Source of the DNA: a virus
Lineage: Duplodnaviria > Heunggongvirae > Uroviricota > Caudoviricetes
IMG/VR virus record: IMGVR_UViG_2529292906_000019
Span: 1-44,062 of that record
Direction: 5' to 3' (one strand)
DNA: 44,062 nucleotides
Part shown: piece by piece, positions 1,674-2,745 of the stretch
Numbering within the stretch: the first letter of the stretch is position 1
How the letters are laid out: the number at the start of each line of letters is the position of its first letter
Notes under the pieces: generated by a model
What the model was told of the DNA's origin: nothing
Databases searched by the model: none
What the model saw: only the letters and a program-made list of their open reading frames with translations
Made by a program: the position numbers and the translations under genes

Positions 1674-2248
1674 CATGATAAACCTACCGTTACCCATTGT
1701 GTGCCAATAAGCATTTGAAGCGGACGAGCGTTTACAGTCTGCGCACCCGCTGTGAATGTAATACCCCGGATTAATAAGCCGGTATCGATAGAAATAAAGT
1801 TTGGGGTCGTCGTTCCTATGGTCGATACCGAGCCTTCCCTAAGTTTGATAACTCCTTTTGCTGACTCAGCAACGGTGACAGAGATATCTGCATCTGCCCC
1901 TCCGTTAAACATCGCATAGCCGTTAGCATCACCTGATACAGAAATTTTCCGCGCAGTAGTCAATGTGGCCACAGAATTAGGTGGATTCCTGCTCGTATAA
2001 ACTTCAGTCCAATTGCTTTCTGTTGTACCACTACGATTTTTAATGAAAATTCTCGGGTTATCAGTTCCGTTAAGGCTAAGCGCTATTCGCGAAGAATAGA
2101 AACTTGTCCCAGCAAAGTTGATATGAACATAATTCTGGTTTGGCTCAGGGTTTCCGGCATCACCGATGGGTAGCGTATAAACATTAGTAATGTCAGTGTT
2201 TGCAGAGGTGGCACCAACTCCGCCAAATCCGAATGCGCCAACCAACAT
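1673..2248 (-). CDS. tail fiber protein, C-terminal distal/receptor-binding part (out of frame with the N-terminal part)
   Basis: 191-aa ORF rich in G/T/S/N, typical of fibre tips; its frame is open upstream to 2293 and joins the N-terminal frame if the A7 run at 2289..2295 were A8. Confidence 0.55.
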   Translation of the reverse strand: MLVGAFGFGGVGATSANTDITNVYTLPIGDAGNPEPNQNYVHINFAGTSFYSSRIALSLNGTDNPRIFIKNRSGTTESNWTEVYTSRNPPNSVATLTTARKISVSGDANGYAMFNGGADADISVTVAESAKGVIKLREGSVSTIGTTTPNFISIDTGLLIRGITFTAGAQTVNARPLQMLIGTQWVTVGLS

Positions 2249-2745
2249 GAGAGCGCCTGTTGTGCTATCAATAACAGATGCCTGAGCATTTTTTTAGCAG
2301 CAGTACCGACTCCCAGATAATTTAACATGGAATCAGCGCTATCTCTTGCCAGTAAACTTCTGGCCGCCCCAGTAAAATCAGCAAGGGCAGCAACATCCGC
2401 ACCTGTAAAATATGGAAGTTTGTTAGCTGAACCTGTAAGAGCAGCCAAGGTAGTCAAAGTGGCATCGAGTGGCTGGGAGGTTTTATTCATCGCTACAATC
2501 AGCTTTGTTACCAGTCCTGCTACGTTGCCGTCATCAAGCACATCATTGCCGCCCTTATCACAAATAAACTGGGCCAGAGCCGAAGCAATAAATGTTGCCT
2601 GTCTAACCGCCTTGTTCACTTCTTTGGAACTGGCCTTTCCGGAAGAAAATCCCGTGGATAGTGCCGCCAGTGCGAGGTATTCTGCTTGAGTTAATACATT
2701 CGCTCCACCAGCTGCGGCAAAAGGTTTAATATCATTAGTTGGCAT
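2083..2745 (-). CDS. tail fiber protein, N-terminal baseplate-proximal part (frame runs into non-protein-like sequence after the A7 run)
   Basis: N-terminus MPTNDIKPFAAAGGANVLTQAEYLALAA... resembles conserved tail-fibre N-termini; after ...LNYLGVGTAAKK (codons over 2289..2295) the translation becomes hydrophobic and unconserved until the stop at 2083. Confidence 0.55.
   Translation of the reverse strand: MPTNDIKPFAAAGGANVLTQAEYLALAALSTGFSSGKASSKEVNKAVRQATFIASALAQFICDKGGNDVLDDGNVAGLVTKLIVAMNKTSQPLDATLTTLAALTGSANKLPYFTGADVAALADFTGAARSLLARDSADSMLNYLGVGTAAKKMLRHLLLIAQQALSCWLAHSDLAELVPPLQTLTLLMFIRYPSVMPETLSQTRIMFISTLLGQVSILRE

Follow-up and report, generated by a model that had tools for sequence, protein, structure and literature searches.

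A tail-fibre gene that loses its reading frame at a run of seven adenines raises a simple question: is the gene broken, or only its record? The gene lies in a 44,062-nt stretch of Caudoviricetes DNA (IMG/VR record IMGVR_UViG_2529292906_000019, positions 1 to 44,062; "the window" denotes this whole stretch), a prophage of Escherichia coli DEC6A with short pieces of host chromosome. A preliminary description of the sequence called the gene broken and offered three unranked alternatives, namely (a) a homopolymer sequencing error, (b) an inactivating mutation in a decaying prophage, and (c) slippage-based variation in fibre expression. Our analysis suggests that the run is very probably a homopolymer under-call in the DEC6A draft assembly and not biology, a cause that we infer from the comparative pattern. 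The difference itself is a single base, it is private to the DEC6A assembly, and its class of change is enriched only in two assemblies of the DEC project.

On the coding (minus) strand the break reads GCT AAA AAA ATG, with the run of seven adenines (A7) at 2295..2289 appearing as T7 on the plus strand. The N-terminal open reading frame (ORF; 2745..2083, minus strand) encodes 220 amino acids (aa), begins as a typical tail-fibre N-terminus and crosses the run; its last 68 codons, 3' of the run, show no homology. No stop interrupts the -1 frame between the run and the stop at 1673; counted from its first ATG, this frame forms an ORF of 191 aa (2248..1673). The earlier account of the run, and of a distal domain open in the -1 frame to 1673, describes the sequence correctly. 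Its prediction that one extra A would fuse both frames also held: a single A inserted into the run gives a fibre protein of 357 aa (about 355 had been estimated) reading ...GVGTAAKKNAQASVIDSTTG... across the junction, as foreseen. The parts of the gene are as follows.

1673..2745, minus strand: tail-fibre gene, deposited as a 220-aa ORF (2745..2083) and a distal frame (2293..1673); with A8, a single 357-aa gene.
2289..2295, minus strand: A7 homopolymer; A8 in 12 of 12 independent samples, where it encodes K151-K152-N153.
2296..2745, minus strand: N-terminal (baseplate-proximal) fibre module, residues 1 to about 150, common to many fibres with other distal domains.
1673..2288, minus strand: distal module, presumed receptor-binding, residues about 153-357, in the -1 frame, with the same stop codon as intact homologues; delimited by alignment with the 357-aa relatives P0001-P0004.

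Related prophages carry the gene intact. The protein repaired to A8 exactly matches a public protein, P0121, that is found on at least 24 contigs. Ten compared loci hold the same prophage at the same site, have A8, and show zero other mismatches over the 1,074-nt fibre gene; they come from isolates, metagenome assemblies, Logan re-assemblies and the sister strain DEC6B (L012, whose assembly was identified through the protein P0129). Two more records, GCA_900450015 and one IMG/VR contig, also have A8. The comparison of run lengths among related prophages that had been proposed at the outset accordingly returned the longer run and an intact 357-aa gene every time, and A7 was seen in the window only. 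The truncated protein of 220 aa is the same as ECDEC6A_2183 of E. coli DEC6A and is on record from no assembly but the NCBI one of DEC6A, and the window is 100% identical to two compared loci (L025 and L033) from that assembly (GCA_000249595.2, contig AIFV01000014.1). These near-identical relatives were found via exact-protein look-ups. DNA searches were far less productive: with the fibre region, 5,426 complete E. coli genomes and a phage collection gave almost no matches, and with the early region the best match had 93.5% identity. Exact look-ups of the window's RecT and large terminase ORFs gave no match, probably because the called start codons differ.

Two further genes show the same kind of lesion. 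The preliminary description had noticed one-base homopolymer losses in a DNA methyltransferase gene and in recE, and both are borne out by the relatives, which have the longer run in each case.

32070..32076, minus strand: contraction in the DNA methyltransferase gene, T6 against T7 in 4 of 4 relatives; a 161-aa protein becomes a 135-aa product.
37844..37848, plus strand: contraction in recE, A5 against A6 in 7 of 7 relatives; recE (37238..39996) is split into ORFs of 213 aa and 704 aa.

The first of these genes matches the DNA methyltransferase family phrog_954 (E = 1e-85). With A6 restored, recE encodes an intact RecE of 919 aa, which has an exact match among public proteins, one source being DEC6B; the 919-aa proteins P0126 and P0129 are about 100% identical to it.

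We then compared the whole window with 18 samples and catalogued all differences, each base being covered by at least two non-self samples. Insertions and deletions (indels) and substitutions were distributed as follows.

DEC6A (the window): three private indels, T7 for T8 at 2289..2295, T6 for T7 at about 32075 and A5 for A6 at 37844; one private substitution (1353).
DEC6B, same project: four private indels, at 29708, 43685, 44056 and one in the host flank; one private substitution (38099, shared with Logan run SRR094137).
16 other samples: no indels; 30 variable substitution sites.

The three frameshifts already noticed are exactly the three indels private to the DEC6A assembly, and each is a one-base contraction of a homopolymer (true lengths 8, 7 and 6). 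All four private indels of DEC6B are one-base contractions of T runs, and all seven DEC-private indels are contractions. Fisher's exact test of indels versus substitutions against the 16 other samples gave p = 6.7e-4 for DEC6A alone and p = 1.0e-5 for both DEC assemblies. The corrected window holds 3 runs of eight, 7 of seven and 38 of six, and the hits climb steeply with run length; runs of at least six hold 0.7% of the bases, and the probability that three random indels would all fall inside them is about 3e-7. The other samples seemed to hold one more indel, but this was the gap at about 32075 placed differently by the alignment. A Logan re-assembly of SRR094137 (L018 and L030) carries the private single-nucleotide polymorphism (SNP) of DEC6B and leaves the DEC6B private indel sites uncovered; it was probably made from DEC6B reads.

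These differences bear the marks of under-calling: they lie in mononucleotide runs, change the length by one, are private to one assembly, outnumber substitutions (3 vs 1), affect unrelated genes, and recur as a class in DEC6B. The DEC assemblies hold about one contraction per 15 kb. Extended to a whole genome, that density would give several hundred frameshifts, set against a private SNP roughly once in 44 kb; this disproportion points to artefact rather than mutation. Homopolymer contractions at such density are a familiar signature of early flow-based draft assemblies. As a product of mutation in two separate isolates, so contraction-heavy a spectrum would not be credible, and because the sister assembly has a private contraction set of its own, the method is implicated and not the lineage. 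We infer that the cause lies in sequencing or assembly. The likeness is to draft genomes of the 454 or Ion Torrent type, in which miscalls create false pseudogenes: single-base length errors restricted to runs of six or more, private and mostly contractions, in unrelated genes, recurring in a second assembly of the same project and absent from assemblies made otherwise.

The following account would then explain the record. The fibre gene would be an ordinary intact gene of 357 aa in a prophage of about 42 kb at the sdsR/ryeA locus of E. coli DEC6A, a prophage with a contractile tail, a lambdoid early region and a RecET module. The N-terminal 150 residues of the fibre would form a baseplate-attachment module and residues of about 153-357 an exchangeable distal, receptor-binding module, the two being joined by a conserved linker, ...SMLNYLGxGTAAKKNAQ.... 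In this lineage K151-K152-N153 is written AAA AAA AAT, creating a run of eight adenines. The DEC6A draft would record that run one base short, as flow-based (pyrosequencing-type) reads do, and a frameshift would appear; the same artefact would shorten the T7 run of the methyltransferase and the A6 run of recE.

Both the assignment and the likeness of DEC6A to such drafts come from the comparative pattern; the DEC collection was reportedly sequenced by 454 Titanium (Hazen et al. 2012). Several points weigh against this account. Genuine slippage during replication hits homopolymers too and likewise favours -1 changes, and a mismatch-repair-deficient history of DEC6 might in principle yield an excess of homopolymer indels. 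Error density is also uneven, in that 8.6 kb of DEC6B host flank are without an indel.

The alternative that survives best is a real and recent mutation, in which replication slippage from A8 to A7 in the DEC6A lineage inactivated the fibre of an unselected prophage and separate events struck the methyltransferase and recE. We consider it unlikely. The A7 lesion is, after all, present in the deposited sequence, and homopolymers are natural hot spots of slippage. The same prophage has also suffered real inactivating events elsewhere, namely the entry of an IS3-family element into the wedge gene of DEC6B and several other strains, and of an IS200-like element in DEC6B, from which it follows that the prophage is dispensable to its hosts; in every member, moreover, the tail-fibre assembly gene reaches only position 103 of a 178-position profile. 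Mutation would nevertheless have to account for three private frameshifts against one substitution in 44 kb, where the 16 other samples have 30 substitution sites and no indel, and for an independent set of the same type of change in DEC6B, from the same project. A decaying prophage might be expected to show lesions of other kinds; the fibre gene, otherwise unchanged over its whole length, has none, and the single private substitution is the only other private change in the window. The prophage furthermore retains both attachment (att) repeats, an integrase, an excisionase and a complete set of structural genes. Were A7 real, it would represent a very recent loss of function by slippage in an otherwise intact prophage, and would be of modest interest.

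It is less probable still that the tract is functional, either as a phase switch (A8 ON, A7 OFF) or as a site at which -1 ribosomal frameshifting or transcriptional slippage yields the full-length fibre. The idea has some appeal on a reading of the sequence, since rescue needs a -1 shift, the run holds a tandem-lysine slippery motif, a one-base slip back to AAT after AAA AAA is read gives the exact wild-type sequence, and the tract sits at the joint of two fibre modules. In these respects (a coding A-rich run, with a -1 shift joining two frames) it resembles phase-variable loci and genes with programmed slippage such as dnaX, IS3-family orfAB and the tail-assembly chaperones G/GT. Here, by contrast, the two frames occur in one record only, and the tract is invariant, unconserved and without a stimulatory structure. 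Its length is eight in each of the twelve independent samples, metagenome assemblies included. Intact homologues of 357 aa (73-91% identity) and one of 392 aa (67%) all read ...GTA(A/P)KKNAQ... across the junction, where their DNA is AAAAAGAAC/T (AAAAAGAAC or AAAAAGAAT) with a longest run of five; the A tract is therefore not conserved, and the long run is a recent synonymous accident of this phage lineage. The two-frame arrangement is not conserved either, every relative encoding the fibre as one plain ORF (357 aa, and 392 aa once). A search of the 94 nt 3' of the run found no stimulatory RNA structure (z = +1.17; 185 of 200 shuffled sequences were at least as stable). A fibre-specific mechanism also cannot account for the same lesion in two unrelated genes. 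If A7 were real and the tract functional, fibre production would be turned off and on heritably by changes between A7 and A8, or slippage would let through a small fraction of full-length fibre; the supply of tail fibres, and hence virion infectivity, would then be under stochastic control in a temperate phage.

Two other origins of the break were considered and rejected. Loss of a G from AAAAAGAAT, the form found in distant relatives, does not fit, as the nearest relatives have A8 with identical flanks. An invertible segment of the Gin/Cin/Pin type does not fit either, there being no invertase, no inverted alternative module, and a one-base difference from otherwise identical intact copies.

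Among the three explanations first put forward, sequencing error thus gains from all other copies having A8 and from DEC6B having contractions of its own, prophage decay draws weak support at best, and slippage-based variation is not supported. The word "broken" probably holds for the database record only. The sequence feature exists as described, but is very probably an error in that record, and the true object is most probably an ordinary, intact, modular tail-fibre gene. The apparent pseudogenes of the tail fibre, the DNA methyltransferase and recE should not be taken as prophage decay, phase variation or recoding. The matter is mainly one of quality control: the DEC6A and DEC6B drafts appear to hold about one homopolymer under-call per 15 kb, and for that reason other frameshifted genes in DEC6A, DEC6B and similar early drafts merit equal scepticism.

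The assignment of the gene as a modular phage tail fibre draws on family homology, on its position between baseplate and chaperone genes, and on a mosaic boundary at residues 133-159. The repaired protein matches the PHROG tail-fibre family phrog_11303 over residues 1-159 (E = 9e-76). Of 125 database relatives, 94 match the N-terminal part only, with homology stopping at residues 143-159, and 23 match the C-terminal part only, with homology starting at residues 133-144; full-length relatives number 7. Given where these two kinds of homology end and begin, K151-K152, encoded by the run, lie at the distal edge of the mosaic joint. The earlier placement of the run at the junction between N-terminal and distal domains agrees with this position.

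The gene order is Baseplate_J, wedge (DUF2612), fibre, and then the following gene.

1365..1676, minus strand: tail-fibre assembly (chaperone) gene, 103 aa, matching profile positions 2-103 of 178.

Fibres of the P2 H, Mu S and lambda Stf type combine a conserved N-terminal module for attachment with exchangeable distal modules for receptor binding and have a Tfa chaperone encoded downstream, and the fibre described here resembles them in gene order, PHROG tail-fibre matches and a shared mosaic joint at about 133-159. It differs from them in a distal module that belongs to no Pfam family, in a short chaperone gene (103 aa), and in having neither an invertase nor an invertible segment. The short form of the chaperone gene is found in all near-identical E. 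coli relatives, and Citrobacter-type relatives have 174-178 aa. The sole DEC6A-private substitution in 44 kb (window 1353; T here, C in 10 of 10 relatives) is intergenic, 12 nt beyond the stop of this gene, and may be either a true SNP or a miscalled base.

On the other side of the fibre, several relatives have an IS3-family element inserted in the wedge gene (2748..3404, minus strand) at window 3187..3192 (L009 8288..9501; L012 829..1634). Its carriers are DEC6B, GCA_052766305, ERZ27246379, GCA_048150105, ERZ810362 and one IMG/VR contig. DEC6A does not have this insertion, and its prophage is in that respect the structurally more intact copy.

The prophage as a whole is delimited by a direct repeat.

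1064..43473, no strand assigned: prophage of about 42.4 kb, inserted between pphA and yebY at the SraC/RyeA-SdsR/RyeB locus; an 18-nt direct repeat (1064..1081 and 43456..43473) marks its two ends.

Window 1..1095 is ordinary E. coli chromosome (yebW, pphA). The repeat, AGATAAAAAGAGACCGAA, is exact over 18 nt and extends imperfectly beyond them. At its second copy SraC/RyeA has its 5' end and SdsR/RyeB its 3' end (small RNA genes at 43456..43600, plus strand, and 43460..43559, minus strand), which suggests that the phage integrates into the end of this pair and restores it. The integrase gene lies at 42297..43382, and an excisionase is called in relatives. Besides the integrase, the prophage carries RecE/RecT, a repressor, O-type and DnaC-type replication proteins, NinG, a Q antiterminator and lysis genes, together with genes for terminase, portal, capsid and a contractile tail (sheath, tube, Baseplate_J and the DUF2612 wedge).

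Two insertions were seen in the head-gene region of relatives. DEC6B has an IS200-like element (Y1 transposase) at window position of about 18130 (L034 20043..20288), where the window and the other relatives have no insertion. In GCA_024755885, about 100 nt are inserted in frame in a Pa193_gp24-like head gene (16944..18107, minus strand; insertion at about 17305..17327; L026 5820..5900), which makes the product 421 aa against 387 aa; this insertion is possibly a tandem duplication.

A second methyltransferase sequence lies near 30.4 kb. The ORF 30371..30523 (minus strand) encodes, at about 30380..30480, a fragment of about 35 aa with a C5-cytosine methyltransferase C-terminal motif (...RCGNAVPPPFAEAL...) and no upstream gene body, and it sits in about 1.1 kb without a long ORF (29557..30688). 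Because its sequence is the same in all relatives, this fragment is a real remnant and not an assembly error. We considered whether the remnant near 30.4 kb, with its GNAVPP motif, was the methyltransferase meant in the preliminary description, and rejected it: the remnant is only about 35 aa long and does not vary among the relatives, and the gene meant is the one at about 32075. Finally, 28844..29086 (minus strand) encodes an 80-aa homologue of the theta subunit of DNA polymerase III (HolE; PF06440 in the precomputed annotation of relatives), and the host holE lies about 5 kb past the prophage end in two of the compared loci (L017 and L019).
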